Shown piece after piece: positions 8,179 to 51,267 of a DNA stretch of 64,000 nt (its first letter is position 1; each line of letters opens with the position of its first letter). Source of the stretch: Nitrospirota bacterium (lineage in GTDB: Bacteria > Nitrospirota > UBA9217); NCBI GenBank assembly GCA_963740085.1, contig CAVUCU010000001.1:1216001-1280000 (forward strand), given 5' to 3'. Position numbers and translations under genes: made by a program. Under the pieces are notes generated by a model that searched no databases, was not told where the DNA came from, and saw nothing but the letters and a program-made list of their open reading frames with translations.

Positions 8179-8398
8179 TGATTAAGCGTACCCGATAATC
8201 CATAACATTGGTATGACGATAATCATACCACGGTAAAGACGAGAAATATATGCCCGCTCGACGATATTCTGGGGTTCCCGCACATGCACTGGGAAACGAG
8301 ATCGTCGAAAAGAACATGACGAACGGCAAAATACGTGTGGAAGATCAAGAAAACGGCCGATGTTGCTGTTGCTCAATCTCGGTGAAGAGAGGTCATTT

Positions 8399-8471
8399 AT
8401 GAAAAGCTCGTTCTGGGTCGTGGTGGTTATCGTGATAGGATTTCTGGGATTCCTCACCGGCTACAGCCTGC
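8399..8471 (+). pseudogene. 5' fragment of a small membrane-protein gene (MKSSFWVVVVIVIGFLGFLTGYSL), truncated
   Basis: SD gagagg and ATG at 8399; the hydrophobic helix is followed by an abrupt switch to unrelated coding sequence at ~8471. Confidence 0.45.
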
Positions 8472-8742
8472 GACAATATCGCACAATACGGCACCGTGTC
8501 CGCAGACCTCGGGGACTTTACGTACCAGGGCGCTGCATTCATTCCCTATTCCATGAAACGCGAGGACATAACGCGGCTCCGGCAGATCACCTTTAAAAAA
8601 ATTCTACTCGCGGCCGCGCTTTCTGGCCCGGAGGGTCCTGGGCATAAGGAGCCTTCATGACATCCGTGCCGCATTTACCGGTTTTAAAAGCCTGTTCTGG
8701 GTATGGATCAAGCGGGATCTGTTCCGGCGGGGCGAGGCGTAA
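8472..8742 (+). pseudogene. 3' remnant of a B12-binding radical SAM-type gene, with a frameshift at an A7 tract
   Basis: Reads DNIAQYGTVSADLGDFTYQGAAFIPYSMKREDITRLRQITFKK, then (one extra A at 8595-8601) FYSRPRFLARRVLGIRSLHDIRAAF...GEA*. This resembles the C-terminal FY.RP tail of B12-rSAM proteins. No 5' part is present. Confidence 0.6.
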
Positions 8743-8747
8743 GCAGG

Positions 8748-10801: not shown

Positions 10802-11186
10802 GTTCTTATTATAATCTGGTGCAGGAGAAAAGGAAACAGGAATGGCGGGAAAAACTGATGCCGCCTCCCCATTGTGCTGTTTAGGCCGCTATCAGAGACG
10901 CCATTGTCCCGATCCGGACAACTGGTCTGCTCAACCCGTCAATAAAACAATGGATTACGTGTGGTACAACCCGTTGTTATAATAGAAAACATTTTGACAA
11001 TAAAAACTTGACAAAACAAAAAGTATCTGTTAATGTTTCCCCAGATAGATGTCATGCCCCTTTCATTATAATGCTAAAGAGGATTCTTTCTGGCTTAAAG
11101 ATCAGATGTGCTTCTTGTTGCGGCACTGGTGTTCTATAAAAAATTCCCGGATTATTCTCCGGGCACATTAAAAAGGAGGCAGAGAG

Positions 11187-11816
11187 ATGATGGACAGCTT
11201 TATCAGGCGGTTTGGATTTGGTTTTTTGATCGGCATGACGCTGATCGTATCAGCGTGCGGTGGAAGTGGAGGGCTTGGCGACCTGGGCCTCGGTGACCTG
11301 GGCAGCAGCAATAACACTGACATGACGGCCGATCAAGCTACGTCGTTTGCAAGATCCGTAACCCGTATTTCAACGAGTTCCATGAGCAGCCCGTCATTGA
11401 GGGCACCGGCATTATCAGGTGAGGCTGCTCAATCAATGGCAGCCACCCAGATCAATCAACCGATTTCGTATACGTTAACCTGCACCTCAGGTGGCAACAT
11501 GAAAGCGTCGGGAAATATCACCGGCTCCATCTCTGATAACGGTACCGGCTACATTTCGTTGCAAATCCCGATAACAATATCAGACTGGAGCTGTCAGACG
11601 CCGTTGATAATCAATGGCGATCCTTATATTTCTATTACCGGAACGTTCACCTTTGTAAACGGATTTCCCGGGACGCAACAGCATATCAGCATAAGCGGCG
11701 GTTTTAGATCTGCCACCCAAAGCTGCCAGATCCTGTTGGGTACGGATTTCAACAGCGCCGGAGGCGGTCATACGAGCGGCACCTGCTGTGGTCATTCAGT
11801 TGACTTTACGTTTTAG
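11187..11816 (+). CDS. Hypothetical lipoprotein (Ser/Thr/Gly-rich, beta-rich)
   Basis: SD aaggagg; lipobox IVSAC followed by GGSGG. Confidence 0.75.
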   Translation: MMDSFIRRFGFGFLIGMTLIVSACGGSGGLGDLGLGDLGSSNNTDMTADQATSFARSVTRISTSSMSSPSLRAPALSGEAAQSMAATQINQPISYTLTCTSGGNMKASGNITGSISDNGTGYISLQIPITISDWSCQTPLIINGDPYISITGTFTFVNGFPGTQQHISISGGFRSATQSCQILLGTDFNSAGGGHTSGTCCGHSVDFTF

Positions 11817-11879
11817 GAAGATGTATACGGCTCCGCTCTATCACTCTATCAGTACCCGGTAAACATATGAACGCATCTC

Positions 11880-11915
11880 GCATACCAGAGTGCTTCAGCA
11901 CTCTGGTATGCTTTT
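11880..11915 (+). terminator. Rho-independent terminator
   Basis: gcataccagagtgc / gcactctggtatgc 14-bp perfect stem followed by tttt. Confidence 0.85.
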
Positions 11916-12140
11916 CGTCATGAACCAAAGCTTCGCTTCCTCCGGCACATAAGGTCCCAATTCTCCTTTCTGATTTTTAGATCGTTCATGGAATGGGCAA
12001 CGTGTTCATGGCAACTGTCACGCACTCCCAGCATGGGCACCCGCTCATCTGCTCATGGTCCGACCCAGTCTTCCTTAGCCCTCTTGCAAGCGTAGCATAA
12101 AGGTTTTTCAGATGGTACGGACAATTAATGATATAATGAG

Positions 12141-13205
12141 TTGATGCTGGCGCCAATCAAGGCTTATATCAACGACGGGCATTTTCGTATGGACAAAAAT
12201 CAATACATAGAAAACAGCATCAATGAATCACTCATCAAATTTACTCCAATTATCTGTCTCGGGGGCGCGGTAATCTTTATTTGCTTAAGCGCCCTCGATT
12301 ATGTCAGCAAACCTGAATACTTCCTGACCTTTCTCGGTTATCGGGTGATAATTTCCAGTGTGCTGCTCTTTATCTTCCTGATCTTACGTAAATATACATT
12401 TCGCAGTATTCTCATTTATAAGTTTTTACTTTTTATGGGTGCGGTAGGGTCTGCCTTTACGGTGGAACTCATGATCTTAAAGACTGGCGGCGACATTTCT
12501 TCTTATTATGTTGGCATTGGTTTAGTAGGCGTCTGGGTCATCAGCTTTACCCCGGTTCGGTTCACTCTTTCCTCGATATTAATGCTCGCGGTATACGGCA
12601 CCTATGTACTCCCCATCATCGCCACGGAAAAAATTGCCGACTTTCGAATATTTTTTACATCCAATATTTTTTTACTATCATTATTATCGAGTGCACTGGT
12701 TCTCAGGTATATTTACTTCTCCAGTCTGGTCAACGAACTGGGGCTCAAGTATGATCTTGAACAACACAAGATAAACCTTGAGAATCAGGTCAATGATAGA
12801 ACAGCCAGACTCTCCGACAGTATTGCGCGTTTACAAAAAGAGATCGGGGCGCGAGAACGGATTGAACTCGCCTTAAATAAAGCTTCCAGCGAATGGCGGG
12901 CAACCTTTGATTCAACAACAGATGTGATCATGACGCTAAACACCGACTACATTGTTCGCCGCTTGAACAAGGCAGGCACGCTTTTTTATAACCGACCATT
13001 CAAAGATTTGATAGGCACCCCGCTGTCGCAACTGTTCCCCCTTGATATTTTCCAAAAACGATGCAAAAAATCAGTCCACATTGAAACATTCTTCAGAACA
13101 TCAGAGAGGGGAATGTCTATCTGTCCGAAAGAAAGGTATGGTTGTCTTATACTCTTGACCCGATACTGGATGATGACGGGCAGCTTATCGGCAGGGTACT
13201 TATGA
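12141..13205 (+). CDS. N-terminal part (multi-TM sensor + coiled coil + PAS start) of a frameshifted hybrid histidine kinase
   Basis: About 5-6 TM helices, LENQVNDRTA coiled coil, EWRATFDS...D PAS start. Coherence is lost at ~13050-13100. Confidence 0.7.
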   Translation: MMLAPIKAYINDGHFRMDKNQYIENSINESLIKFTPIICLGGAVIFICLSALDYVSKPEYFLTFLGYRVIISSVLLFIFLILRKYTFRSILIYKFLLFMGAVGSAFTVELMILKTGGDISSYYVGIGLVGVWVISFTPVRFTLSSILMLAVYGTYVLPIIATEKIADFRIFFTSNIFLLSLLSSALVLRYIYFSSLVNELGLKYDLEQHKINLENQVNDRTARLSDSIARLQKEIGARERIELALNKASSEWRATFDSTTDVIMTLNTDYIVRRLNKAGTLFYNRPFKDLIGTPLSQLFPLDIFQKRCKKSVHIETFFRTSERGMSICPKERYGCLILLTRYWMMTGSLSAGYL

Positions 13206-37493: not shown

Positions 37494-38831
37494 TTACAAA
37501 ACCGCTGTGGAAAGCGGGCTTGCCTTACTGCCGGTCCCCATCTTGAAATTAAAGATACCCTTAAGATGATACTCTGGCGGTGGGACCAGTGTTGAATCAT
37601 TGTCGGTTAATGTAATATCAAAATCACCAGTTGCCTCGGTTGCCGTTGAACCAGGTGAAAAGGAAATGGTGCCCTGACTCACTTTTTTCAGCGTGGATCT
37701 CTCTCCATTGAAGACAAGGAATATACCGGGGAATTTCTCGTACTGAGAATTGTCTTCAATGGCAAACGTTTTGCCACCGATGCTCGGCATGACACCGTTG
37801 TCCGATTTCTGAATGTCGATCCTGATGACGGTCCTGAAATTTTCATCCCAGACATTTTCCGCAACATTGGCCTGTATTGACCAATACGCATCATTGTTCG
37901 TTGAATAATAGAAATTTGGCTTTACAAGCCCATACTCATCATCAGTGACCGTTAAGTAGTTGATATGGGCCAGATTCTGGTCGACAGTTGCGGCAGTTAT
38001 TGCCGAACTGGTTCCGGTTGTTTCACTTGCCGTTGTACTGCCGGATGAGGCCTGACTGCTTCCGCCTCCGCTGCCGCATGCTGCCAGGAGCGCGACCAGC
38101 ACCGCGGTCATGAGCATCTGTTGAAGGTGTATTCCGTGTTTTATGTGATGGGGCTTGGCATACCCTTCTTCAATGAGCACCTCACCAAGCTTTTTCCGGG
38201 ACCCGGTCTGTTTGAGGAGAGCATCATCAAGTTGTCTGCGCGAGATAGTGCCTGAAGAGACCAGTATCTCCCCTAGCTTAAGCGGGCCGGGCACCGGTTT
38301 GGCATTGCCCTGGTTCTGTTGAAAATCGAGGACGCCGTACAGCTCTCGTTTCGTTAACAGGCCCTGGCGAACCAGAACCTCGCCGAGCTTCTCGCCGCTT
38401 CTCTTTTGATCGGAAATCGCGCGCTCAAGTTGTTCGCTCGTGATTCGTCCTGCCTGAACGAGCAGGTCGCCCAGCAGTCGGCGAACGCCCGCGGCAATCT
38501 TGACCGCGTCCTCGACGCGGTCAAGATGTTCCTGCACAGAAAGTGCTACCTTGATATCCGCAGGATCAATAATATTCATCCTGACCAGTACCTGACCAAG
38601 AAGTTCATTGGTTTTCTTTTGTTCCTCCAACGCGGCTTCGACGTTTTGCCGGGGTAGAAATCCGCCATCAATCAGGATCTGTCCGATGAAGCGCTTATTT
38701 TGTTTTTGTTTCAGCATAGGTAGCTCCTTTGCGTTGCTTACAGCCGCGCTTTGCTTCTTGTACGGAGATTCCGCCATCTTCGTGCCGCTAAAACGTCTGT
38801 CTGCGCGATCTCCATTTTCAGAGTATATCAT
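37494..38831 (-). CDS. Triple MshEN-type (c-di-GMP-binding) domain protein with an internal lipobox and a C-terminal beta-rich domain
   Basis: Six xLGxxL(V/I)xxGxIxxxxLxxALxxQ half-motifs, then MLMTAVLVALLAAC-GSGGG; SD aaggaagg before ATG 38831. Confidence 0.8.
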   Translation of the reverse strand: MIYSENGDRADRRFSGTKMAESPYKKQSAAVSNAKELPMLKQKQNKRFIGQILIDGGFLPRQNVEAALEEQKKTNELLGQVLVRMNIIDPADIKVALSVQEHLDRVEDAVKIAAGVRRLLGDLLVQAGRITSEQLERAISDQKRSGEKLGEVLVRQGLLTKRELYGVLDFQQNQGNAKPVPGPLKLGEILVSSGTISRRQLDDALLKQTGSRKKLGEVLIEEGYAKPHHIKHGIHLQQMLMTAVLVALLAACGSGGGSSQASSGSTTASETTGTSSAITAATVDQNLAHINYLTVTDDEYGLVKPNFYYSTNNDAYWSIQANVAENVWDENFRTVIRIDIQKSDNGVMPSIGGKTFAIEDNSQYEKFPGIFLVFNGERSTLKKVSQGTISFSPGSTATEATGDFDITLTDNDSTLVPPPEYHLKGIFNFKMGTGSKASPLSTAVL

Positions 38832-38860
38832 CTTTCAACCTTCCTTTCTCTGCATCCGGA

Positions 38861-41800
38861 TCACTGGCCGCTGAACCACTTCACGGCGTCGCGGACGCTC
38901 ACTTGGTCAAACTTCATTCTCATCTTGACAAACGGCCCCTCGCTGGTGAAATCAGCCTTCGAGAAATCGCGGTCTTTAAAACCATTGAAATTGTATCCCA
39001 CACTTATCCAGAGGTTCCTGCCGGCGTTGAACCCGACCGATGCGCCGGTCCCGTATTTTTCCTGGCGCAGGCTTAGGGAGTGGAGCCGCATGCCGCGGAG
39101 ACCAATATCCCACTTCTTCGTGACATCGAAACGGCCCTCCAGCCCGACCAGGTCAGTGTATCCCCGATAATCGTTCTCATCGATCCGTTCCTGGACGTAT
39201 TTTGAAGCGTACTGCAAAGAAACCTGGGTCCTGATAGTCGTCTTGATGTTCGCAACAAGGTTGTTGACAAAGCGCTTGTTGTCGTCGTAGGTTGTTATCC
39301 CTCCATGCTGCTCTGACTGTATCAGATCCAGCCGGTCCAGGATGATGACGCGGGTGTCGAAGGGGCGGTGCACAAGGCTCAGACGCAGATCGCTACTGGC
39401 TTTCTCCTCCCCGGCAAGGATGTTGCTCCGGAACGTCTGCAGTCCCAGCGCAAGAGCGAGTCCCTCCCGCACCTCGCCGTTCGCACCCATGAACAAACCG
39501 AACTTGCGTTCGGAATCTGAATCGCGGTTTTCCACCCTCGCGGTCCATGACCATTTTTCCTGACGATATCCTACGCCAAGAGAAGTCGCTGTAAAGTCCT
39601 CGCTGCTCCCCGATGCGGGAGGAACGTTGGTGTTGACAGAATAGGTACCCGTGTTATGCAGCGTCTGGCTTCGATCCAGACCGCCATCCACGCTCCACTG
39701 CTTCGTGATCTGCCAGGACTGCTTCAGTCCAGTGGTGGAGAAAAGCCGCACGCCGTTCTCGGTCGACTGCTGTTCCATGGAGGACCCGATCTGGCCGCCG
39801 GTCCACGGCGATGTCCTGATCCCGATGCGCGTGGTCTCGGTGTCTATCGTGGAACCATTCGTCCACTCCTGGTCGGCGAAGAACGTTGATTTCTCATTGA
39901 GCTTGTAGTCAGCCCCGACGGTCGTCCTCGTCGGGAAATCGACGTTGTTGTTCGCTCCGATGGACTGATCGCGACTGATCCGGACCGCAGTCTTGTCGGT
40001 CACCTGGGCCCTTATGCCGGAGAAGAGCTGGTCGGACCGTTGCGTCTCGCCGAAGCTCTGTGTCCCAGCAGTGCTCAGGGTGTCATCAGCCTGGCGCAAA
40101 CCCGCCGTCACCGTATACCGTCCCGCAGTGTAATTGCTTCGCACCTCGGCCATGTCGCGCACCGCGCCGGTGGATAAATTGTTCTGCTCGAACACCTCTC
40201 CGCCAATGGTCCACAGTTTGTTGATCCGATAATTGAGGTCCGCTCCGATCTTCCGGGTGCCAGTCTCGCTGCCACTCTGCTGACCAAGCCCGAACCCGCC
40301 TTGCTGTTCCCGAACGTAAGCCTTACCCTCAGCTTTTTCCGAACGGTGCTGCAACTCCGCGAGAAATGCGTCACCTTGGCTCGTGACGCCCGCCAGGTCC
40401 GTCTTTGTCGTGGCGGCCTCCGCCCGGAGCAGGTCATACTCACCGAGCTTGACCTTCGCATCGACCCCTTCGAGGTTGCCCGATCCTCCCACCTGGCCCT
40501 CATGAACGTGGGAGGCGCCGACCTCTAAGCGGCTGTCGAGGAACCGCGCGGCAGCGCGGCCGCCATAGTTGTATTTCGCATCCTCGTCGTCAAAAGATTC
40601 ATATTCCGCAACAATGAAAATTGGATTGAAATTCCCGTCACGGCTGTATACCGGCATCTTGAAGAAAATGGTACCGGCATCGTAGTCGATAGTGTAGTCC
40701 AGGTTGTTTGTCAGCCGCTGGCTCGAAAGAATGACCTCGCTCTTGAACCGGTCCCGGGTCTCGATCGTGATCGTTTCTGAATTGAGCACGATATTCTTCC
40801 GTGACAGGTGGTAAAGTCCCGAGGTACCGTCGCCAGAGTACTCGTCCCGCACGTGGGCCTGGTTTGTATCCGCCAGAAAAACCGTGTATTCGTAATCCTT
40901 GGTCTTCATCTCCGACTTGAACCCGGTGAAGTTCCGGTTGTACCGTGACAGCTCGGTGATGGAAAGACCAGCATTAAAATCACCGAATAGGGCATAGAAC
41001 TGGTCGCGCTCCAGTTTGATGTAGATGCGCTTAGCGCTCGCCGCATCGTTGCCCTGAAGCGTACCATCGCCGTACAGGGTGTAGTACTTGTTCGGATCGA
41101 TGGTCTGATACAGGCTCGGCTGGTCAGTGCTGTCTGTTTTTTTACTGTCATAGGCCAGCGTGAGAAGCCACTCTCCCTTGATCCTGCCCTTGGCATAGAA
41201 GGCCAGGCGGTCCTCTTCGTAGAACTTGTCATCGCCTCCACCAGAAGTGAAGGTCTCCATGTTGCCCTTTACGGTATCGTATCCCACCGTGCCTTCGGCA
41301 AGGCCGACGAGGACCCAGTCCCGGTCCCCGGGTTTCAGCCACGTGCGGATTTCCTCAAATCGTTCAGCGTCAAGTTGCACACGAACAATCGCTTCTCCTG
41401 TCTGCGTTGTCGGAACAAGCTCGATCATCGCCACGCCGTCCTCGCCGACAAGATACCGGTATCTATCAGTATTCAGTGCAATGAGCGGCGATTGTTGAAG
41501 CTTATCAGCGCTCTGCTTGGGGATATACGGCGGATCAAGAAAATAATCGGCCCGCACTCCCTCCCTGGCGGGATGTCCATCCTTATCCAAGAGTTGTATG
41601 GCAAGAATTATGGGGGTTTTGCCATCCGCAATGAGCTTCGATCTCTCGGGCAACAGTATAGCCTTTGCCGGCGGTCCTGAATAGTGTACGGTCCGCTGCA
41701 GCCGCTTGACCTCGAAATCGGCGCCATCAGAGAGAACGAGTTCGAATTTATTGTCTCCCTCCTGTAAATGTATCCCGCGCCAGAAGCTGATGGCCACAGT

Positions 41801-44800
41801 GCCGTCAGATTTTTTGATCATTCCTTCATAATGAAGGAGATCCACCGCGTCGCCATTCAAAAAGAGTTTCAGTTTCTGGCTCGGATCGTGCTTTATAGCA
41901 ATTCTCAGACTCGCAATAGCAGGGTGATAGCCATCAACAGGCCAGAGCCACTCCAACCCCGGCTCTGCCTTTTCAACCCAGGCGGCATCGTAGTCCGGCA
42001 TGGTCTTGCCGTCGCCGATAGGCGTCAGGGACTCTGATTGCGGGTTCTCTAGCCAGATCTCGCCCTCGGACAAGCCCGTAATTGAAACGGACTTCACGCC
42101 ACTCGTTTCTTTGTCGTTGCGTACATAGTCCCAAGCGGAATCCTTGCGAGTGTCGACTCTGAACTCAACACGGCGGTTCAGCGCCCGTCCCTCTGCGGTC
42201 TTATTGGTCGCAACCGGTTCGTCAGGTCCCTTCCCGACGATCATGATCTGATCCGGGGCGAGCCGGAGTGTCTCGGCAATGACCTTGGCGACCGTCCTGG
42301 CGCGGCCTCGCGACAGCACGTAATTATCCGGGAACTCCTTGCTTGCCCTTGGGCGAATACGGTTGGAATCGGTATGACCGGTAACGGTAATATGCTCGAT
42401 ATTTCTTGATTTCATTTGTTCAATGATCTTCGATATTTCTTTCTGATCGCTCGAAGACAGGTCCGCCTTCAGCGAGGCGAACTTGGGATGGAATATGGCA
42501 TCGGGTTCGCTCATCTGACGCTTTAATTTGTAGCGGACAAGGTTCGTGTCAGCCACGGGCGTCTTCGCTCCTTGTGCTGCCGGAGTGTCGAAAACCAGGA
42601 ACGACTTCGTGGGCAGGTTTCCCTCAGCGCCTTGCGCCGGCACTGTCGCAGAGAACATGAGGGAACCCTCCCACCCGGCAGGCCGATCGCCCAAACGGTA
42701 GGTCAGGACGCCGTCGCTGAGGCCAGGATCAGGGACGCTGCCGTCAGCCAGAAAGCTGCTTCCCGGTGAGTATGTTACGCCGTCCGGCATCATTACGATC
42801 AGTCGGAGGTTTCGTACGGAGACCGATCCCACATGCAGTTTGGCTGAATAGGCGATGGTGTACTGGCAGTTCGCGTCGGGGAGACTGCAATTCTCATTCA
42901 CGAACGGCACCATGGCCGTATAGTCGTTATGGTCTTTCGCGTCCGGCCTCGAAGTCCCGGTCTGGTTCGTGGCCAGGGAATTCGTCTTCACTTCGCCGAA
43001 GCAATGCTCGCCGAAGATACACGTTTGGGCTGTAGCAAGGGAAGCCTCCGGCTCCCCTGCATCAACATGGTTAATCAAATCGCTCCTGGTCGTGACCAGG
43101 GATGTCTGCAGCTCAAGGCCGACTTCGCCGGTCTGTTTCGCTTTCGGAGGACGGAGCGCCAGATGGAAATCGGCCCTCCACAAGGAACCACCTTGCAAAT
43201 CCACGAACTGCGAAAATGACCTGCCCGCGAAACGCGTGTTATCCTCGCACTGCGCGGGCTCGTATTCCTCGGGCACCGTGACGGTATCAAGCTGCACCAC
43301 ATGAGTCCCCGGGAGAACAGCCGCGAAATGATACATCCCATTCTTGTCGGTTATGACATAGGATCCGTCCTCAAGGAAGATACGGACCCCTGCAATACCG
43401 TGCCCGTCTTTACCGCAGCCTTCAAGGATCCGGCCGACAATGGTCGTCCTGCTCAGAAAGAGATCCTCGGTCACCAGGACCGTAGCCGTCGCAATGTTGG
43501 ATACCACGCCGGAGGAGCCGTTCGCCACAGCCGTGTTCAAGGCCTTTCCAAGGTTAGCGCCGGCGCCCACTTCGGCCACGTAGGTGATGTCCGCTTTTCC
43601 CGCTGCGATGAGATTGCCGACCGTAAAGGTGACGCTCCGGCCGTCCTCGGAGATGACAGGCTCGGTCGCGGGAACACTGTTCAGGCGCACTGACCCTTTC
43701 CGGTACCGGAAACCGGCCGGCAGCCGGTCAGTAATGGTCACCCCCGGCGCCGGTGCGCTCTCGTCGATGTTTTCCACCGTAAGTTGATAGGGAACAAAGT
43801 CACCAATTGCCGCCGAATCCTTGCCTGCGGATTTGATGAGATAGAGCCGGGTGCTCAACGGGTCAATGGGAATATCGATATGGATCGCCGGCCCGGCGTT
43901 CACCAGGAACTCCTCACTGCGCGAGCCGGGCTCGGCAATGGCAAAAGGGGCTCCCGGCAGGGCCTGCAAAACACGGGTCGCGACGTTCGAAGGAGACCGA
44001 AAGCCTGAGGGCGGCAGGACGTCAAGGCGATAGCGGCCCGGGCTGATAAAGGGGAACCGGTATCCGCCTGGTGACATGGAGTACGCCCTGCCACTGCTGT
44101 CCACTGCCGTGCCACCAGTGATGAGGTTGGACGGAAAAGTCGAGATGCCGTCATCACCGTATACGGTCGCGGGATTACCCGTAGCGGTGTTCACCAGGGT
44201 GACGATCGCCCCGTCGACCGGCTGACCAGTCGTGCTGTTAAACAAAACGCCATAGGGATCGACCAGCGCAGTCGTTGTGTGGGAATCCGTCGGGTCCGCC
44301 GGGTCCACGTAGAGCGCTGTAATATGCGAATCGTTCACGAGATTCAGAAGACCGTTGTTGTCAATCTTTTGATCGGAGCTGGATTGTATGACCCCCATAA
44401 AGACGCCGGTGTTGGGTCCAGTCTCGGTCAGCTTGAGCACTTCTGTGTCCCCGGTCTTGTCGTCATGAACTGTCACCACGACGGTTTCCGCGACCGCGGG
44501 ATCGTTATTCTGGTCGCCGTCAGTCAATCGGATGAAGACCGGCTCGCCGGTGTGATACTGCGTCGGCGAAATGAGCGACAGCGGCTTGGCCAGATCGAGC
44601 CTTGCGGACGATCCTGCCGGCATCGGCGCGTCAAGAGGAACAAACGGTCCGGCCAGGTTTCCGCTGGGGCTATAGGATGTTGAATGAACGACAACAGTCT
44701 GTGCGCCCAGCGCATCAGGCGCGTACTGGAGGAATTCTAAGACCGCGGTAGTCCGCTGGACCATGGACGTCACTGACGCCGCAGGAGACGTTACGGTCAC

Positions 44801-45046
44801 CGGACTTCCCGCAGGCCCGTTTGTATACGTCGCGGTTGCGACATTGGTGATGATGGTGCCGGATGGCGTGATGGACCAGCCGACGGATGAGAACAGGATG
44901 ATGAAAAGGAATGATAACAGAGAAATAACTAGAGAAGAAAAAATTGGGGCCGCTTCAGCGAACGGGCGCAACGCGACCGTGCCTTCATCCTCATGGGTGG
45001 AGGTACGGTCGATGTGCGCGTCATGTGTGCCTAAGCGGTCCCTCAT
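38861..45046 (-). CDS. Giant DUF11 + OmpA-like peptidoglycan-binding + predicted C-terminal beta-barrel outer-membrane protein
   Basis: Hydrophobic signal; complete DUF11 (LIKS..GDFVPY..ITDRLP..NTA); OmpA motif TGHTD...LSRGRA...G.GPDEPVA.N...GRALNRRVE; ~800 aa of amphipathic beta-strands at the C-terminus. Confidence 0.85.
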   Translation of the reverse strand: MRDRLGTHDAHIDRTSTHEDEGTVALRPFAEAAPIFSSLVISLLSFLFIILFSSVGWSITPSGTIITNVATATYTNGPAGSPVTVTSPAASVTSMVQRTTAVLEFLQYAPDALGAQTVVVHSTSYSPSGNLAGPFVPLDAPMPAGSSARLDLAKPLSLISPTQYHTGEPVFIRLTDGDQNNDPAVAETVVVTVHDDKTGDTEVLKLTETGPNTGVFMGVIQSSSDQKIDNNGLLNLVNDSHITALYVDPADPTDSHTTTALVDPYGVLFNSTTGQPVDGAIVTLVNTATGNPATVYGDDGISTFPSNLITGGTAVDSSGRAYSMSPGGYRFPFISPGRYRLDVLPPSGFRSPSNVATRVLQALPGAPFAIAEPGSRSEEFLVNAGPAIHIDIPIDPLSTRLYLIKSAGKDSAAIGDFVPYQLTVENIDESAPAPGVTITDRLPAGFRYRKGSVRLNSVPATEPVISEDGRSVTFTVGNLIAAGKADITYVAEVGAGANLGKALNTAVANGSSGVVSNIATATVLVTEDLFLSRTTIVGRILEGCGKDGHGIAGVRIFLEDGSYVITDKNGMYHFAAVLPGTHVVQLDTVTVPEEYEPAQCEDNTRFAGRSFSQFVDLQGGSLWRADFHLALRPPKAKQTGEVGLELQTSLVTTRSDLINHVDAGEPEASLATAQTCIFGEHCFGEVKTNSLATNQTGTSRPDAKDHNDYTAMVPFVNENCSLPDANCQYTIAYSAKLHVGSVSVRNLRLIVMMPDGVTYSPGSSFLADGSVPDPGLSDGVLTYRLGDRPAGWEGSLMFSATVPAQGAEGNLPTKSFLVFDTPAAQGAKTPVADTNLVRYKLKRQMSEPDAIFHPKFASLKADLSSSDQKEISKIIEQMKSRNIEHITVTGHTDSNRIRPRASKEFPDNYVLSRGRARTVAKVIAETLRLAPDQIMIVGKGPDEPVATNKTAEGRALNRRVEFRVDTRKDSAWDYVRNDKETSGVKSVSITGLSEGEIWLENPQSESLTPIGDGKTMPDYDAAWVEKAEPGLEWLWPVDGYHPAIASLRIAIKHDPSQKLKLFLNGDAVDLLHYEGMIKKSDGTVAISFWRGIHLQEGDNKFELVLSDGADFEVKRLQRTVHYSGPPAKAILLPERSKLIADGKTPIILAIQLLDKDGHPAREGVRADYFLDPPYIPKQSADKLQQSPLIALNTDRYRYLVGEDGVAMIELVPTTQTGEAIVRVQLDAERFEEIRTWLKPGDRDWVLVGLAEGTVGYDTVKGNMETFTSGGGDDKFYEEDRLAFYAKGRIKGEWLLTLAYDSKKTDSTDQPSLYQTIDPNKYYTLYGDGTLQGNDAASAKRIYIKLERDQFYALFGDFNAGLSITELSRYNRNFTGFKSEMKTKDYEYTVFLADTNQAHVRDEYSGDGTSGLYHLSRKNIVLNSETITIETRDRFKSEVILSSQRLTNNLDYTIDYDAGTIFFKMPVYSRDGNFNPIFIVAEYESFDDEDAKYNYGGRAAARFLDSRLEVGASHVHEGQVGGSGNLEGVDAKVKLGEYDLLRAEAATTKTDLAGVTSQGDAFLAELQHRSEKAEGKAYVREQQGGFGLGQQSGSETGTRKIGADLNYRINKLWTIGGEVFEQNNLSTGAVRDMAEVRSNYTAGRYTVTAGLRQADDTLSTAGTQSFGETQRSDQLFSGIRAQVTDKTAVRISRDQSIGANNNVDFPTRTTVGADYKLNEKSTFFADQEWTNGSTIDTETTRIGIRTSPWTGGQIGSSMEQQSTENGVRLFSTTGLKQSWQITKQWSVDGGLDRSQTLHNTGTYSVNTNVPPASGSSEDFTATSLGVGYRQEKWSWTARVENRDSDSERKFGLFMGANGEVREGLALALGLQTFRSNILAGEEKASSDLRLSLVHRPFDTRVIILDRLDLIQSEQHGGITTYDDNKRFVNNLVANIKTTIRTQVSLQYASKYVQERIDENDYRGYTDLVGLEGRFDVTKKWDIGLRGMRLHSLSLRQEKYGTGASVGFNAGRNLWISVGYNFNGFKDRDFSKADFTSEGPFVKMRMKFDQVSVRDAVKWFSGQ

Positions 45047-45099
45047 ACAGTTCGATCAATTTCCCCGCCCTTCATGATGACGGGGAAGGTCATGTCTCC

Positions 45100-46200
45100 T
45101 TACTGGACAACAACCTGATACTTGATTACGGCGGAATTTCCTTGCGCGACCGTCAGGCCGGAAACCGTTACTATGTTTGTAGTAAAATCAGCGCCGTCAG
45201 CATCGCCGGTGTTCGTCTTGCAAACATTGTTCACTACGATACCGGACCCTCCGGCGCAAGGGTTGGAGGGGGCAACACCATCATCGTATTGGGTCCTGAA
45301 TGCGATATTTCCTGCCGAGATCATGGCATTGAGGTTGTCAGTAATTGCTACATTCGACGCATCAGCACCACCCGCGGCGTTTGTTACTGTCACGGTGTAC
45401 GTGATCACTGCTCCGGGTATCGCTTTGGGGCTCGCAAACAAGTTTACTGGATCCCAATACACCGTGGCCGTCTTGCTCACGGTCAAGCCCGCGGCAGTAA
45501 TGGTAAAGGTGCCACTTGCGGAGTGTTTCCCGTCACGCGCCACGTCGCTGGCAGCGCTCCCTGCTGCATCTCCGAATATTGTCATTACACAGATTGAGAT
45601 TGGCAGCCGTTTGTGTCCCGAGCTGTCTCATGTGGATGCGGTCAAGGTCCCCGCGTCTACGGCTGTCGCCAGAAGGTCGTAACCCGCGATTGAACCATTT
45701 GTCGCGGTTGCCGGTATATCACCGACGATCAGTACGGTAATGCTTGCGCCTGACGCGATGTCACCGAATGTGCCGGCAGTAGCGTACAGTGTATCGCCGG
45801 CGTCCCATTTGCCGTCATTGTTGTTATCGCGATAAATATTCGGAGTGGTCAACGTCCAGGTGTTCGTCGCCTTCGATACGGGTGACAGGGCAAAGCGCAT
45901 GGCCGTATTGCTCATATTCGAGACGAGGAACTGGATCGCCTGGAAGGTTGAACTCGGTGCGCTGGTCACATCGCTTTGTTTCGTAACAGTCAAATAGATC
46001 ACTCTGTCAACCACAAAGGTGACGGTGTTCCCCGGCACCGCGGTTTGCGGTACCGTGCCGACAGTATAATTCACTGTCGCCTGATTCGAGATACTGACTC
46101 CCGCGGCCGTATTCGCCGCCTGCGCGAACTGCGGGACCGCCACGGCAATCGCCACAAACAGCAGAATTGCCGCTATCTTATACATACTTTGCTTTATCAT
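45100..46200 (-). pseudogene. Secreted DUF11 pilin-like subunit interrupted by an in-frame TGA at 45628-45630 (pseudogene or sequence error)
   Basis: ORFs 45628..46200 and 45100..45585 are in the same frame and together align end-to-end with paralogue 46902..47936. Confidence 0.8.
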
Positions 46201-46386
46201 TGTTTCCTCCTAGTTTTTAATTAATTACGTTATTTAAATTGTGTTCCCTTTTTGTTTGCAGCCTGTTTATATCTCTTTTCACCTCCTAAGAATCATTCGC
46301 ATAGTGCACCTCCGCTCTTAGGTCCTTGAAAATCAGCATTTGTTCATCCATAATCTTATCCTCCAAATAAATAATTTAGAATGCGT

Positions 46387-46890
46387 CTATTTAATCCTTG
46401 CCTTGAATGAAACACTACCTGTACCACCAGCGGGGAGTGGCTTGGTCAGGGTCCATCTAATACCGGTGTAGTCTTCCGCCCCGGCCTGGCGCACCATTCC
46501 CTTCGCGTTTTTGACCATCAGTTTCTCCGGTGCGCTGTAGGTCTTCCCGCCGTCTGTTGAAAACTCGATGCGGGTGTTGCTCCCTTCTACGCTGTTGTCG
46601 AGATAGGTCATATTCTTGTCAATAGGATTCGTGATCACGACATCGGTGGCGGGCTGCTTGCCGGTGTTGGTATAGTGCGTCGTGAAAACCACCGTGTCTC
46701 CCGGCACCGTCGCCGCCGCTTTGGCGACATCGACCCGCTTAACGACCTTCTCGCCCTTTTCATTTCTTCCCGCAACCTCTACTTCCGCAACGGACTTGAG
46801 CGCTATGGCACTTTTCTGCTGTGTCCAAGCGGCCATCGGCGCCAGCAACACCAGCGCCAAAACTACCTGTAATATTCTTTGCATTATCAT
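46387..46890 (-). CDS. Secreted single DUF11-like domain protein (167 aa)
   Basis: Signal peptide; VPGDTVVFT..YTNTG..PATDVVITNPI...IRWTL...VSFKARIK*. Confidence 0.85.
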   Translation of the reverse strand: MIMQRILQVVLALVLLAPMAAWTQQKSAIALKSVAEVEVAGRNEKGEKVVKRVDVAKAAATVPGDTVVFTTHYTNTGKQPATDVVITNPIDKNMTYLDNSVEGSNTRIEFSTDGGKTYSAPEKLMVKNAKGMVRQAGAEDYTGIRWTLTKPLPAGGTGSVSFKARIK

Positions 46891-46901
46891 CTCCCCCTTT
46901 T

Positions 46902-47936
46902 TTATTTGATCTTAACTTCAAAAGTTATCGTTTGTATCGGCGACGCGCTCGTCAGATTTCCGAGCTTCACGGTCACAGTATTCGGTGTCGTCACCCCCAC
47001 GTCCCCGGCGTCGGTGTCGGCGATATCAGTAAGGGCTGCATTGTTCAGCCGGAGTGAATTGGCGATATACACCGTGTTCAACGGCAGCGGGTCGCTGATC
47101 ACCACGTTGTTCGCTGTGCCTCCCCCCGATGTGGCCGCAACAATCGCGTACCGGAGCGTCGCCCCCGGGAGGGGCAGGCCTCCGCCCCATTGGTCAAGTA
47201 TTGTAACGGTCTTGCTTAGGCTCACGTTCAATGCGGCAACGGATATTATGTTGAAAGCGCCGCTCGCCGAGTGCTTTCCGTCCCGCGCTCCGTCGCCGGC
47301 AACGCTTCCCGCGATGTCCAGGAACACCGTGTCGATACCCGATGTATTGGGCCCCGCGGTCTGCGTGGAAACATTCAAGGTTCCGGCATCGACCGCTGTC
47401 GCCACCAGGTCATATAGCGCTGATTGGCCGATCGTCAGACCCGCGGGCGCGTCCGCGACGATCAATACCGTGACCGATGAGTTTGATACAAGGTCCCCGA
47501 ACGTGCTTGCGTCGCTGTACAGGGTGTCTCCCGCGTCCCAGGTGCCGCTGTTGTTATTGTCTCGAAAGATTCGGACATTGTTCATGGTCCATGTGTTCGT
47601 GGCCTTCGATACGGCCGAGAAAGCGAAGCGCAGGGTCGTATTGCTCGTATTGGAGACGAGAAACGACAGGGCTACGTTGCTGGAGGTCGGCGCGGTATTC
47701 ACATCCGAGTTCTTGGTCACAACCATGTTGATCGCCCGGTCTACCATGAAGGAATTCCCGGCCGTCGCAGTATGGTTCACGCCGCCGCTGAAAAAACTGA
47801 CTGAGACGGTGTTTGTGATGACCATCCCGGCAGGTGTGCCCGCAGCCCGGGCATTACCCGCTGCAAAAAAGAACCCGGCAAGGAATACGATGATTCCCCA
47901 GCATGCCGCGTAATATATTTTTTTTCTGTTTTGCAT
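46902..47936 (-). CDS. Secreted DUF11 pilin-like subunit (344 aa)
   Basis: Signal ARA|A; N-terminal AGTPAGMVITNTV; DNNNSG Ca-loop-like motif; C-terminal DUF11 LSKT..PGATLRY..ISDPLP..ITFEVKIK*. Confidence 0.88.
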   Translation of the reverse strand: MQNRKKIYYAACWGIIVFLAGFFFAAGNARAAGTPAGMVITNTVSVSFFSGGVNHTATAGNSFMVDRAINMVVTKNSDVNTAPTSSNVALSFLVSNTSNTTLRFAFSAVSKATNTWTMNNVRIFRDNNNSGTWDAGDTLYSDASTFGDLVSNSSVTVLIVADAPAGLTIGQSALYDLVATAVDAGTLNVSTQTAGPNTSGIDTVFLDIAGSVAGDGARDGKHSASGAFNIISVAALNVSLSKTVTILDQWGGGLPLPGATLRYAIVAATSGGGTANNVVISDPLPLNTVYIANSLRLNNAALTDIADTDAGDVGVTTPNTVTVKLGNLTSASPIQTITFEVKIK

Positions 47937-47990
47937 AGTCGTATTCGTTCAGCCTTGTCCTTCACCGGCCGGGACAATGCCTTCAGTGAC

Positions 47991-50900
47991 TTAGTTGATC
48001 GATACCTTAAACTTCACGGTAAAGCTTGCGCCGCCTCCGTTCAGCGTCCCGCTGGGTTTAATGCGCACCCCTTTTACGAGAGGATCGTAACCGATGGTCG
48101 TAGGGGGATAGACGTACGGCGGACCGCCGCCGGGTTGGTATGAATAGGAAACCGCGTTCGCATAGGTCCACGGCGTCGTCAGGCCGCAGCCACTGCACGA
48201 GAAGGTCACGGCGCTGCCGGCGGTATCAACGTACATGGTCATATTGGCAGGGATAACATCCGTGATGGCGATCGAGTCCGCGTCCGCCACGCCGCTGCCG
48301 TTGTTGATCACCTGTATGGTATATTGGACCTCCGCGCCGGGAATCGCCTTTGCGGACGCCGATACGCCGTTGATGGGATCAGAAATGACCGAAGACGATT
48401 TCACAACCATAAGAGACGGCAAAAGCGATACGTTGAACGTACCGACGCCTGTGTGAGAAACCGTGCCTTCGGTACCCTCCGGAGCCGTTACGGAAACGGT
48501 CCAGTTTCCGGAAGGCGCAGGCGCCGTGAGCGGGAAAGCGTATTCGAACGTTTTGGTCGCGACACCCGAGTCCGCGACCTGGGGCATGGCCACAGCGTTG
48601 ATAACGGTCACGTTGCCCGGGTCCTTGACGGTGATCATCGGCTGCGTCGTCGCGTTGTTGCTCGCGTTGATATCGAAGCTCCCGAAGGGGTCGCTCACGA
48701 CTGCCCGCAGGTAGACAGTGCCGGTGGTAAATGATGCGGGTATGGTCACTAAGGGATAGGCCGTGCTGTATGCAGTGACGCTGTTCACATTTATGACGGT
48801 CGCCGAAGGCAGATCGACATACGATCGGTTCCCGCCGTTTATCGGATACACCGTCAGGGCGCGACTGATGCCGGTGTTCGTAATGGTGAGGGTCCATTTG
48901 TTCCCCTGAGCGCAGGTCTGTGGCGGCGAGTAGGGCAAGTTGAACGTCTGAAGGTACACCGTACCTCCGGCGGCAAAGGCAATACTCTTCGTCTGAGTAA
49001 GGCTGATTGCTCCACAGGTGAGATTAACCCTTACGTTTCCGGTCCTGCCGTTTGTACAAGACATATAGAGGTTTACCGGAACATTATTTGAATTTGGATC
49101 GAGGGTCATGGGTAACTGCATAGCAACATCTTGTGCCCATATCTGAGATGAAGTTGCAGCGCCAATCGTGATAGTGCTGTTATTACCCGAGATGGATCGT
49201 GATATCGGCCCGGGCGCTCCTCCGCCTGCTCCATAGAGGTATAGCTGCTTGAGGCCGGTGACGGGGACCTGCGACTGGGAGACGGTGATCGCAGGCGCCG
49301 CTGGTGTGGCACCCGTCCCCGCGGGGTTCGTGATAGTGGCGGTGTTGTTGATAAGGGTACCAATTGCGGCCCCCCCTGCGATCGTCGTGGATACGACGAT
49401 TGCGGCGGTCCCGTTGGCAGGAACCAAGATGTTGGACGCCGTAAGCACTTGCCCCACGATAGTACATGTCGCACCCGCAGGACAACTTATGACCGAAAGA
49501 TTTGTCAGTGTCGCCTGGAACGTGTCCGTCACCGAGACACCGGAGACTGCTGCACCGCCGGTCTCGTTCAGCGTGATCGTATACGGTATAACGTCGCCCG
49601 GATTCTGGTCCCCACCGTTCGTATCCGTCCAAGTCTTTGTTGAGGTGGAGAGATTGGAGTTAACCGGAATGTTCACGGTAACGCTATCATTGTTGGAGTT
49701 GTAGTCCGTGATGGAACCCGGGATGACGAGGCTTGCGGTGTTGCTGAGCAGGCTGGGCGCCGGTGCGCTTACCGTACCCGTTATCGTATAGGTCACATAC
49801 CCGTACCGGGGAAGGTTGGCGGTGGTGTTGATGTTGTTCCCGCTCCCTGAGGCAGCGCCGCAGGTTGCACCTCCTGATCCCGCGCAGGTCCAGGCAACGC
49901 CGGTTATGGCCGCCGGCACGGTGTCTTGGATCCCGACTCCGGTCGCTGTCACGTTGTTGGGACCGGTATTACTTGCGATAACGGTATATCGGACAGTGTC
50001 CCCCGCTGACGCGGTCGTCGTCGAACCGCTCGTCACGTCCAAGAATGTCTTGGTGATGGCGAGGTCGATTGCGGTTGTCGTGTTCTGGTTGCTCACCAGG
50101 AGGTTGCGGATCTCATGGTAGTTCGTGGAGCCGCCGGTGCTGGCGGCGTAGCCGATCATGAGCTTCTGGGCTGTCGAGATCGCGGGGAGCGCCTGGTTCG
50201 TGATCATCTGCGTATAGACAAGCGGGGAGCCGTAGCCGAACGCAACCCAGACATTAGCGACCGGGTTTGGCGCCGGGCTGATCTGTATACGCACCTTGCG
50301 GTAGCTCACACCGGTCTGGGAAGGCCTGGGTGATCCGTTGTACCACAGTGAGCCGTTGTTGGCAGAGGTGGCTATCCAGGGATAAGAATTTGTGTTCGAC
50401 GTTTGTCCGATGGCGCCCCCGCCGAAACCGACGACGGAGCCGCGAATTGTCACGGTGTTGGGTCGTTGTGAAGTGCCATTGTAGCGTCCTTCACAGCCAT
50501 AGGCAAAGTTACCGAATTCATCGACGCCGATTCCCACATAGCCGCCGCTGATTCCCGGAACACTCGGGTTAACCGGACTGCACGCAGCAGTAGACAGTTT
50601 CTGTGCATAACCCAGGGAGCCGCCGAAGGCGCCTATGTTGAAGGGACTTGCCCCACCATCGAACAGGTAGACGCTATAGCCGTCTGCGCCGTTCCCGCCC
50701 CAAGTGGCGTAATCAAACTCGATCAGGAGCCCGGCGCTCAGGTCAAACGTGGTGGTGTTATAGGCAAAACCGGTCTGGTTACCTGTGGCGTTGGTCAGGC
50801 GCAGCCATCCCTGTCCTGCCGGATCAATGGCGCCATTTCCGGTCAGAACAGCGGAGCTGGGATTTCCGCCCAAGATCCAGCCCGTACTGTTCGTGTCGGT

Positions 50901-51116
50901 CATCGGCGCATTGATGATGATCGAGGCGGAGGCGTTTACGGCAAAACAGACCGCAATCACCGTTGCCAGGACGAATGAGCAAAGTATGGATCCAGACTGC
51001 CGGAAATAGGTATTCCTGCAAGGAGCTGAGACCTTTCCCTGTGGCAAAGCTTTCTTTGTTCCGATAAAGTTCATCTCACGTTGTCCCGAATAATCTCCCG
51101 CTGATCTTTTACTCAT
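47991..51116 (-). CDS. Large secreted adhesin: L-type lectin-like domain + DUF11 domains
   Basis: GWLRLT...Q.G, IEFDY..WGG.GADG, GSLGY, GIGVDEFGNF, IGYAASTGGSTNYHEI lectin pattern; three DUF11 domains. Start may be ATG 51074. Confidence 0.85.
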   Translation of the reverse strand: MSKRSAGDYSGQREMNFIGTKKALPQGKVSAPCRNTYFRQSGSILCSFVLATVIAVCFAVNASASIIINAPMTDTNSTGWILGGNPSSAVLTGNGAIDPAGQGWLRLTNATGNQTGFAYNTTTFDLSAGLLIEFDYATWGGNGADGYSVYLFDGGASPFNIGAFGGSLGYAQKLSTAACSPVNPSVPGISGGYVGIGVDEFGNFAYGCEGRYNGTSQRPNTVTIRGSVVGFGGGAIGQTSNTNSYPWIATSANNGSLWYNGSPRPSQTGVSYRKVRIQISPAPNPVANVWVAFGYGSPLVYTQMITNQALPAISTAQKLMIGYAASTGGSTNYHEIRNLLVSNQNTTTAIDLAITKTFLDVTSGSTTTASAGDTVRYTVIASNTGPNNVTATGVGIQDTVPAAITGVAWTCAGSGGATCGAASGSGNNINTTANLPRYGYVTYTITGTVSAPAPSLLSNTASLVIPGSITDYNSNNDSVTVNIPVNSNLSTSTKTWTDTNGGDQNPGDVIPYTITLNETGGAAVSGVSVTDTFQATLTNLSVISCPAGATCTIVGQVLTASNILVPANGTAAIVVSTTIAGGAAIGTLINNTATITNPAGTGATPAAPAITVSQSQVPVTGLKQLYLYGAGGGAPGPISRSISGNNSTITIGAATSSQIWAQDVAMQLPMTLDPNSNNVPVNLYMSCTNGRTGNVRVNLTCGAISLTQTKSIAFAAGGTVYLQTFNLPYSPPQTCAQGNKWTLTITNTGISRALTVYPINGGNRSYVDLPSATVINVNSVTAYSTAYPLVTIPASFTTGTVYLRAVVSDPFGSFDINASNNATTQPMITVKDPGNVTVINAVAMPQVADSGVATKTFEYAFPLTAPAPSGNWTVSVTAPEGTEGTVSHTGVGTFNVSLLPSLMVVKSSSVISDPINGVSASAKAIPGAEVQYTIQVINNGSGVADADSIAITDVIPANMTMYVDTAGSAVTFSCSGCGLTTPWTYANAVSYSYQPGGGPPYVYPPTTIGYDPLVKGVRIKPSGTLNGGGASFTVKFKVSIN

Positions 51117-51238
51117 TTAGGCCTGGCCTTCGTGTCTTGATCTGGCTCAGAAAGTTCTTTATAGAAAATTTTGCCTTAAATTGATCGGTACTTCTGCCGT
51201 AAATCGTTATCAAGAGATATCTGCTTCAACTTGGTAAT

Positions 51239-51267
51239 ATTATACGAAGAATAAAAATAATAGTCAA
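51239..51267 (-). promoter_or_regulatory. Near-consensus sigma70 promoter for the DUF11 operon
   Basis: Minus strand TTGACT-N17-TATAAT (51267-51262; 51244-51239). Confidence 0.75.

Follow-up and report, generated by a model that had tools for sequence, protein, structure and literature searches.

Fibres assembled by strand complementation are known in several forms (chaperone-usher pili, type V pili, TasA fibres and archaeal filaments), and self-locking isopeptide bonds are known from the interior of Gram-positive pilins, from BsaA and from archaeal threads. Here we describe a locus of a Nitrospirota bacterium that bears on both. It lies on the minus strand of a 64,000-nucleotide window, by which we mean the whole stretch of DNA that was analysed (positions 1,216,001 to 1,280,000 of contig CAVUCU010000001.1, assembly GCA_963740085.1), and consists of six closely spaced genes with intergenic gaps of 11 to 186 nt. 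Five of them, coding for an adhesin, pilin A (pilA), a 167-residue protein (p167), pilin B (pilB) and a giant protein, make up a candidate pilus system in which DUF11 domains are split between gene products. A fibre operon with reconstituted DUF11/CLIPPER (CnaA-like) joints is in our judgement the best explanation of this locus, at a probability of about 70%.

Chaperone-usher pili are made from Sec-exported subunits: the tip adhesin combines a lectin with an acceptor-only pilin domain, one major subunit is used many times, and the fibre is terminated by a last subunit that is donor only. The type V pili found in Bacteroidota are diderm fibres that form by strand exchange with neither chaperone nor usher, from lipoprotein precursors matured by a protease. 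The engineered SpyTag/SpyCatcher pairs are split CnaB-type domains, in which a strand docks and locks covalently in trans. At the chaperone-usher joint, an incomplete Ig-like subunit is made whole by an extension at the next subunit's N-terminus, as described in PMC11821415. The thread of the archaeon Sulfolobus acidocaldarius (Saci_0406) has an N-terminal donor strand after a type I signal peptide and an intermolecular isopeptide bond from the N-terminal amine of Asp24 to Asn57 of subunit n+2; its description gives a putative cap gene in the operon and no known dedicated machinery (PMC9715654). BsaA of Clostridium perfringens, a member of the TasA family, is described as undergoing donor-strand exchange and then forming an autocatalytic Lys-Asn bond from Asn35 of the donor strand to Lys74 of the receiver, with Glu56 as catalyst, and mutants are reported to lose the oligomers (PMC11580942). 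DUF11 itself belongs to the CnaA-like isopeptide domains, and the structure showing its intramolecular bond dates from 2025 (9IFR, Lys715/Asp748/Asn806, with a catalytic Asp); in CnaA-like folds the bond links the first and the penultimate strand, the bonds described are within one chain, and the word "split" is absent from the main text (PMC12617251).

Matches to the DUF11 family run through the whole operon. Pfam family PF01345 (cut-off 24.6 bits) matched the adhesin in three stretches (E 3.7e-20, 72.8 bits), the giant with 33.4 bits and p167 with 26.2 bits, and TIGR01451 scored above its cut-off of 24 in the adhesin, pilin A, p167, the C part of pilin B and the giant. The complete internal domains end "...AAIVVSTTIAGGAAIGTLINNTATI" in the adhesin and "...ITYVAEVGAGANLGKALNTAVANGSSGVVSNIATATV" in the giant. 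The last domains of the smaller proteins are shorter, with the stop codon directly after FTVKFKVSIN in the adhesin, ITFEVKIK in pilin A, IKYQVVVQ in pilin B and VSFKARIK in p167. The acceptor ends keep the Lys of the first strand and the Asp, and are without the Asn (penultimate) strand and the last strand. Directly after signal-peptide-like stretches, pilin A reads AGTPAGMVITNTVSVSF, pilin B ANTAAGVSISNQATVNY and the giant ITPSGTIITNVATATY: the mature N-termini of pilins and giant carry a G..I.N.A.V.Y strand plus a second strand, with no linker before the next domain. A Pfam scan of these 45-residue mature N-termini gave matches in none of the three.

Because Pfam aligned the terminal domains too loosely for the point of truncation to be placed, we took the giant's complete DUF11 domain together with 116 homologues, built from them a local hidden Markov model (HMM) of 136 positions, with the Lys at 11, the Asp at 46 and the Asn at 110, and aligned to it the proteins of the window and of 12 related Nitrospirota loci. 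Internal DUF11 domains align up to positions 131-133, whereas the last domains of pilins and adhesins end at or before position 99. Those alignments that reach the protein end stop at 93-99 (pilin A of L040, L045 and L037; pilin B of L046, L036 and L043); for example, positions 18-96 correspond to residues 319-400 of 404 in the L040 pilin A, and positions 20-99 to residues 265-361 of 362 in the L046 pilin B. The other terminal-domain alignments mostly break off earlier owing to divergence. The truncation is a loss of the last two strands, with the cut placed exactly in the loop before the Asn strand. Even the loop is preserved: in its complete domain the giant has 10 residues separating F strand and Asn, and pilin A has 1 C-terminal plus 10 N-terminal residues. 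Since the fold is CnaA-like and the Asn lies on the penultimate strand, the donated piece comprises two strands, the Asn strand and the last one. Donors start directly after an A-x-A-type cleavage site in 77 of 77 aligned homologues, and the truncation recurs in the same 77. Neither the adhesin nor p167 has a donor of its own, and the giant, judged by sequence, is without a truncated domain, both of its DUF11-like domains being complete. Three triad-bearing acceptors (adhesin, pilin A and pilin B) thus equal three donors (pilin A, pilin B and giant). An earlier note on this DNA, made from the letters alone, had claimed that the last domain of every small member stops just before an Asn hairpin and that the missing hairpin appears at the mature N-termini of the pilins and the giant; all sequences that it quoted are present as written, and both claims were borne out by the HMM and by the 77 homologues.

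The arrangement is conserved well beyond this genome. A word-indexed search found 154 relatives of pilin A, all unnamed or annotated as "TIGR01451 repeat protein", and 43 of 301 genomes of the phylum match at E <= 1e-10, a count that takes in weaker DUF11 matches. The genes for pilin A, p167 and pilin B stand in that order in all 12 of the Nitrospirota loci compared, together with an open reading frame (ORF) that has an adhesin-type last domain, and the giant comes next in 11, the contig ending in the twelfth. All 12 loci also share the same division of ends: pilins and giants begin, after the signal peptide, with G-T-x-I-x-N/S-x-A-x-x-Y and adhesins and p167 do not; pilins, p167 and adhesins terminate right past the F strand; and adhesins of varied architecture are closed by the same C-terminal domain.

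To look across phyla, we located loci from an alignment of the giant protein, taking one genome per species. The giant's family comprises at least 525 confirmed loci, of which the best 80 were analysed. These come from Nitrospirota, many Desulfobacterota, Lentisphaeria, Fibrobacteraceae, Krumholzibacteriota, Burkholderiaceae and Gammaproteobacteria, and among the Desulfobacterota are cultured carriers (Geomonas species, Geomobilimonas luticola, Desulfosarcina alkanivorans PL12 and Desulfatibacillum alkenivorans DSM 16219). A row of pilin, p167, pilin and giant occurs in 39 of the best 80 loci, in several phyla. Where at least 3.2 kb lies upstream of the giant ORF, the canonical order is found in 36 of 52 loci, and in the 8 that we inspected of the 16 non-canonical ones, the ORFs in the gaps were pilins with a donor start and a truncated end. 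No other gene is consistently linked to the system in the best 80 loci; a response-regulator-like gene follows 3' of the giant in 6 of the 39 (for example at 12853-14259 of L057). Recurrence in 77 of 77 homologues, in 12 of 12 Nitrospirota loci and in 39 further loci argues that the pattern is not due to chance, and the polarity of donors and acceptors proposed in the earlier note has thus held up across homologous operons.

The residues of the isopeptide triad follow the split. Acceptor Lys is invariant in the alignment of 77 sequences (77/77) and the Asp is kept in at least 90%. Across loci, Lys and Asp are both present in 38 of 39 pilin A, 39 of 39 pilin B and 19 of 23 adhesin last domains (the remainder being three alignment gaps and one Lys/Glu), and the donor Asn is present in 38 of 39 pilin B and 38 of 39 giant proteins (one gap). 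p167 departs from this, a point that the earlier note did not see: its Lys is kept in 11 of 39 and the catalytic Asp site holds Asn in 37 of 39, so that this acceptor is unable to form the bond. On this pattern of conservation, we lean towards an autocatalytic Lys-Asn lock at most joints.

Natural fusions show the separate pieces in one chain. Profile search found several fused forms (a separate search for longer forms of pilin A gave 1 weak match only). P0248 (696 aa) is two pilins in one chain with no second signal peptide, joined at "...RFSVTVN-ASQAP-NTSIANTG...", with five residues between the F strand of the first pilin and the hairpin of the second. In P0264 (1335 aa) a hairpin and pilin come immediately after an adhesin-type last domain, and in an ORF of locus L028 a pilA-type domain is completed by a following AGTVISNTASVTF hairpin, after which the first strand of the next domain begins. 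These three proteins indicate that the ancestral or fused order is acceptor domain, hairpin, next domain, the same order that complementation in trans would recreate. The distance from a hairpin to the truncated end of the same chain also varies, from one domain in the pilins to two in a protein of L033 and, in P0264, about 1000 residues; such variation speaks against closure in cis. From these comparisons of sequence we regard complementation in trans as likely.

The fibre that we propose would be built from Sec-exported subunits in an order set by their polarity, with the acceptor-only adhesin as tip, pilins A and B, which have both a donor and an acceptor end, as shaft, and the donor-only giant last. 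The hairpin of pilin A would insert into the last domain of the adhesin, the pilins would join head to tail, and growth would end once the giant's hairpin occupied the last free acceptor. By inserting into a neighbour's last domain, each hairpin would rebuild a normal tandem-domain stalk from separate polypeptides, and joints with a full triad would be locked by an autocatalytic Lys-Asn isopeptide, as in complete DUF11 domains. p167 would bind a donor hairpin reversibly, without a bond, perhaps as a distal cap or as a holding factor displaced by triad-bearing acceptors. The giant would tether the fibre, through its OmpA-like domain to peptidoglycan and through its C-terminal beta-rich region to the outer membrane; more speculatively, the latter region may double as a conduit, in which case the N-terminal part would thread outward. 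That the shaft is a true polymer with many copies of pilin seems to us a little short of an even bet.

Several observations weigh against this reading or against parts of it. A hairpin-only HMM, made from the internal domain of the giants, gave weak matches (E 0.015 or worse) in an ambiguous register, because the two strands resemble each other. The donor Asn of pilin A is found in 30 of 39 loci (otherwise Ser in 4, Thr in 1 and 4 gaps from split ORFs), and the pilin donor Asn in 53 of 77 homologues, with Ser, Cys, Thr, Gly or Phe in the other 24, so the covalent lock cannot be universal at that joint. Three loci have a pilin A donor without Asn and an adhesin domain to compare (L048, L080 and L105); the adhesin Lys is kept in 3 of 3 and the Asp in 2 of 3 (Glu in L080), and thus there is no informative covariation between donor and acceptor. 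Mean-field direct-coupling analysis of 306 pilins (about 250 effective sequences, with the paralogues mixed) recovered within-domain contacts and placed 1 hairpin-to-last-domain coupling in its top 50 and 2 in its top 100, without a strand ladder; both termini were coupled to the N-domain loop 119-123 (ranks 7, 38 and 64), a signal too weak to use. Nor does the giant's C-terminal region resemble an usher: PF00577 finds nothing in the giant up to E 5, and comparison with FimD by hhalign gave a probability of 4.7%. The OmpA-like domain sits between the N-terminal part that should be outside and the C-terminal barrel, and the proposed topology therefore needs a chain running through the membrane or through the barrel. 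Pilin B is not one open frame in the window: an in-frame TGA (45628-45630) and two local indels divide it into pieces of 190 and 161 aa. Finally, the conserved linker between the N-domain and the last domain of the pilins, about 44 residues, is long enough for the hairpin to fold back in cis.

If that linker were so used, each pilin hairpin would close the last domain of its own chain, as in a circular permutation, and the pilins would be closed, secreted proteins of two domains, the operon then coding for separate surface proteins. CnaA/CnaB folds are described as tolerating inserted domains (PMC12617251), and fusions such as P0248 would also fit two closed modules. In every locus examined, however, self-closure would leave the last domains of adhesin and p167 short of two strands and the giant's hairpin with no domain to complete, and it sits poorly with an adhesin domain that keeps Lys and Asp (19/23) though it is without its own Asn strand, with fused hairpins that trail the preceding domain at normal loop length, and with a number of domains between the two ends that varies by up to about 1000 residues; we consider it very unlikely. 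Still more improbable, in our view, is that nothing is complemented at all, the terminal domains being complete seven-strand variants, the N-terminal motif merely the first strand of the N-domain, and the whole a set of ordinary DUF11 adhesins beside an OmpA-family protein. Compact seven-strand relatives of DUF11 do exist (DUF7507/CLIPPER_2; described in PMC12617251), and the loose Pfam alignments and weak hairpin-only scores would be natural under such an account. It would leave unexplained why a pilA-type domain inside longer proteins (L028, P0248) has the hairpin motif next to it, why Lys and Asp are nearly invariant where the Asn of the triad would be missing, why donors start exactly at the signal-peptidase site in all 77 homologues, and why donor-only and acceptor-only classes are kept across phyla.

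A different question is whether complementation in trans gives a polymer or a fixed chain with one copy of each protein (adhesin <- pilin A <- pilin B <- giant), which would amount to a fibrillar adhesin stalk in four polypeptides, with the giant as its anchor. The exact equality of triad-bearing acceptors and donors would follow from such a chain, the gene order is that of the predicted chain, and 36 of 52 loci keep distinct pilin paralogues flanking p167, which would fit a separate position for each. The lack of a clear hairpin-to-own-family coupling signal is likewise expected for heterotypic pairs, although this silence is weak given the number of effective sequences and the mixing of paralogues. 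The pilin-pilin fusion P0248 and the three pilins of some loci (L038 and L101) speak against one copy each, as does the fact that known donor-strand fibres repeat one major subunit many times, and we hold the fixed chain to be rather unlikely.

Apart from the giant, we found no candidate for an assembly machine. In the window's own genome, 98.5% complete and the scope of all our machinery searches, families PF00577 (usher), PF00345 (PapD_N, the PapD-like chaperone; positive in the E. coli control) and PF04203 (sortase; positive in controls from three Gram-positive genomes) each had 0 matches, PF00345 had none in the operon proteins, and the C-termini end directly after a beta strand with no LPXTG-type signal. 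The earlier note's description of the fibre as sortase-free is accordingly upheld for this genome, and the absence of these three families counts in favour of the proposed reading. With no other conserved gene in the system, the giant's probable barrel is the sole candidate conduit.

The giant's OmpA-like domain is a firm call (52.8 bits against a cut-off of 27.2 for PF00691), and PF00691 is given for 103 of the 120 giant homologues listed. The giant's last ~1000 residues match no Pfam family above chance (best YfaZ, E 0.036, 14.1 bits vs a cut-off of 23), and a PDB sequence search with the C-terminal region returned no solved relative. Among scored candidates this region has 1402 relatives at E <= 1e-5, the named ones being annotated as OmpA family protein, hypothetical protein or TIGR01451 repeat protein. 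The Atlas features of a homologue (P0176) lie nearest to unnamed "outer membrane beta-barrel" clusters, at 0.95, and a heuristic counts 33 amphipathic period-2 segments. On this evidence from sequence, the C-terminal ~820 residues are probably a large outer-membrane barrel; that the region also serves as a translocon is a tentative suggestion. Other PDB searches were of little help: the pilin profile returned only DARPins (E 0.0027, chance), queries with the adhesin N-terminus and giant DUF11 gave nothing useful, and single-sequence search missed 9IFR. Residues 1-58 of the giant (window 44873-45046) form a signal-peptide region of unusual length whose long N-part is charged, much as in the extended signal peptides of autotransporters.

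Set beside the described systems, the proposed fibre would resemble chaperone-usher pili in strand complementation, an acceptor-only tip, a donor-only terminator and Sec-exported subunits. It differs from them in that two strands rather than one would be donated, the acceptor is a CnaA-like DUF11 domain with a triad, chaperone and usher are absent from the genome, and the proposed terminator also carries, in the same chain, an OmpA-like domain and a large beta-rich region. Type V pili differ in their precursors, since the pilins here have type I-like signal peptides with no cleavage-site Cys and would donate strands from their N-termini, and no FimA/Mfa-type pilin family is among the Pfam matches of the operon proteins. 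Sortase pili share Ig-like pilins, a tip, shaft and base, and isopeptide chemistry (the covalent fibre being proposed here); they depend on a sortase and an LPXTG-type signal, whereas the bond proposed here would be autocatalytic and lie inside a reconstituted domain. In contrast to SpyTag/SpyCatcher, the split here would have arisen naturally, would affect a CnaA-like domain and would serve assembly.

The precedents that join strand exchange to a self-made isopeptide, the archaeal thread and BsaA, come from other folds and from cells without an outer membrane. The thread belongs to an archaeon, has another fold and has no giant anchor. BsaA is a Gram-positive matrix fibre of TasA fold that uses the SipW signal peptidase, with one donated strand, no polarity of tip and base and no outer-membrane component; neither a TasA nor a SipW family is among the Pfam and NCBIfam matches of the seven proteins, and no other neighbour is conserved. 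Closest in family are the DUF11/CLIPPER domains of fibrillar adhesins (9IFR), which share PF01345/TIGR01451 and the triad positions. Those domains are described as whole, in tandem repeats with the bond within one chain (PMC12617251), whereas here the domain is split over two gene products. We found no published description of a split DUF11 fibre or of this operon in the main texts covered by full-text search; within that scope, the earlier note's suggestion that the system is undescribed stands. Papers on DUF1102 tafi and on F-ENA were considered as descriptions of this system and set aside, as they concern other systems.

On this reading the operon represents a new form of donor-strand fibre, and there is a real chance that it is a new pilus class. 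The fullest version of the proposal, to which we give only tentative credence, is a widespread undescribed class of diderm pili with self-snapping split-CLIPPER joints, locked by isopeptides like a SpyTag/SpyCatcher polymer of natural origin and needing no chaperone, usher, sortase or ATPase, in which p167 would be a reversible holder and the giant would be the last subunit, a length-setting terminator tethered in cis, the anchor and the conduit.

The features of the locus are collected in the table below.

Table. Features of the split-DUF11 operon, with positions in the window
Feature	Position	Strand	Evidence
Sigma-70-like consensus match TTGACT-17-TATAAT, 5' of the adhesin gene	51239..51267	-	11/12 matches
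Tip adhesin (putative), 1041 aa: signal peptide, weakly lectin-like N-part, complete internal DUF11/CLIPPER-type domains, without donor hairpin	47991..51116	-	PF01345
Adhesin C-terminal acceptor domain, residues 899-1041, DUF11, Lys906 and Asp953, ends FTVKFKVSIN after the F strand	47994..48422	-	
Pilin A (pilA), 344 aa: signal peptide and donor hairpin, then a complete Ig-like N-domain, joined by a conserved linker to a truncated DUF11 acceptor	46902..47936	-	
Pilin A donor hairpin, mature residues 1-35, precursor Asn42, starts at the predicted signal-peptidase site	47739..47843	-	
Pilin A acceptor domain, Lys242 and Asp282, ends ITFEVKIK	46905..47237	-	
p167, 167 aa, acceptor only: signal peptide and one truncated DUF11 without isopeptide triad	46387..46890	-	
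Pilin B (pilB, the "46200 gene"), pilin A paralogue	45100..46200	-	54% identity over N part
Pilin B donor hairpin, Asn39	46015-46116	-	
Giant base protein (putative), 2061 aa: long signal peptide and donor hairpin, then Ig-like domains (one a complete DUF11), an OmpA-like domain and a beta-rich C-terminal region	38861..45046	-	
Giant donor hairpin, residues 59 to about 95, Asn68	44762..44872	-	motif in cross-phylum consensus
Giant complete DUF11 domain, residues 395-530, Lys/Asp/Asn and both last strands; reference for the split	43457..43864	-	
Giant OmpA-like peptidoglycan-binding domain, residues 856-958	42173..42481	-	PF00691 E 5.3e-14
Giant C-terminal region, about residues 1240-2061, without a Pfam family; probable outer-membrane beta-barrel	38864..41329	-	
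445-aa protein: three MshEN-type c-di-GMP-binding motifs, one hydrophobic span, C-terminal domain; accessory, lineage-limited	37494..38831	-	NF053729 E 1.3e-45

Several claims of the earlier note about single features stood in part. The protein that it placed at the tip as a lectin is indeed acceptor only, but the Pfam Lectin_L-type match is weak (E 1.2e-4, 22.4 bits vs a cut-off of 78.3). The near-consensus sigma-70 promoter has the match given in the table, but the region's 12 promoter-like sites do not exceed the 8.4 +/- 3.2 found in shuffles, and we treat the site upstream of the adhesin only as a consensus match. The isopeptide residues are in place as acceptor Lys and Asp and, mostly, as donor Asn, with the exceptions of pilin A and p167 given above. 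The "46200 gene" has the donor and acceptor ends of a shaft paralogue, but its frame is broken in this assembly. The lesion is confined to the 45-nt stretch 45586-45630, with indels of +2 and +1 nt relative to L047 and L035, and pilin B is intact in all 12 related loci. A contig from soil-metagenome run X1 has 6 nt fewer at this site, and with its listed differences the frame is open over 364 aa. The break is probably an assembly error or a strain-level lesion. A selenocysteine or otherwise recoded TGA was rejected, as the frame is shifted on both sides of the stop and the relatives are intact.

The sixth gene of the locus codes for the 445-aa protein, which matches NF053729 in three stretches (153 bits vs a cut-off of 38). 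Its MshEN motifs lie in the N-terminal half, a lipobox-like LLAAC lies in the hydrophobic span near residue 245, and it has a C-terminal domain without a family assignment; the layout recalls inside-out c-di-GMP signalling. Homologues stand beside the system in 5 of the best 80 loci (among them Geobacter and Geomonas records), and also in L035 and L036. Genes unrelated to the operon flank it: upstream lie those for oligopeptide ABC ATPases and a TPR protein, downstream those for a CpXC protein and a topoisomerase subunit.

The N-domain of pilin A contains a conserved loop, R-D-N-N-x-x-G-x-W-D-A-G-D-T-L-Y (window 47450-47600, mature residues about 92-110), in which Asp is nearly invariant. This Asp-rich loop holds the strongest couplings of the analysis (96-128, 96-104 and 96-102) and looks like a metal-binding loop, possibly for calcium.

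Other giant and DUF11 repeat proteins were noticed during the survey. A giant homologue of 2671 aa at 5144-13159 (+) of L095 starts with a Geobacter-type pilin hairpin (ANLAANTKIVN...), has extra DUF11 domains and may be a pilin-giant fusion. Two loci from other Nitrospirota families, L027 and L029, have open frames of 2425 and 4149 aa that begin with the same kind of signal peptide, donor hairpin and pilin-type N-domain, so donor-bearing giant proteins also occur outside the five-gene system. The window's own genome encodes a second DUF11 repeat protein, unlinked to the operon, with an open frame of 3093 aa (contig C4, about 294300-295130; L003, L004) and repeats that match the last domain of the pilin. 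Elsewhere the giant gene is broken, into 10 ORFs in L035 (G218:C8) and 4 in L041/L049 (G239:C2), and L041 also has a split pilin; frameshifts seem to be numerous in these long contigs, and broken genes in such assemblies need care.

The system is not rare, and several of its carriers are cultured. It would unite strand complementation and self-locking isopeptides in diderms; its fold is another one, its donor would have two strands, and one giant protein is the only recognisable candidate for an assembly machine. If true, this would explain how many environmental anaerobes attach to surfaces, would provide natural orthogonal tag/catcher pairs with built-in polarity, and would raise the question of how folded Ig domains cross the outer membrane without an usher.

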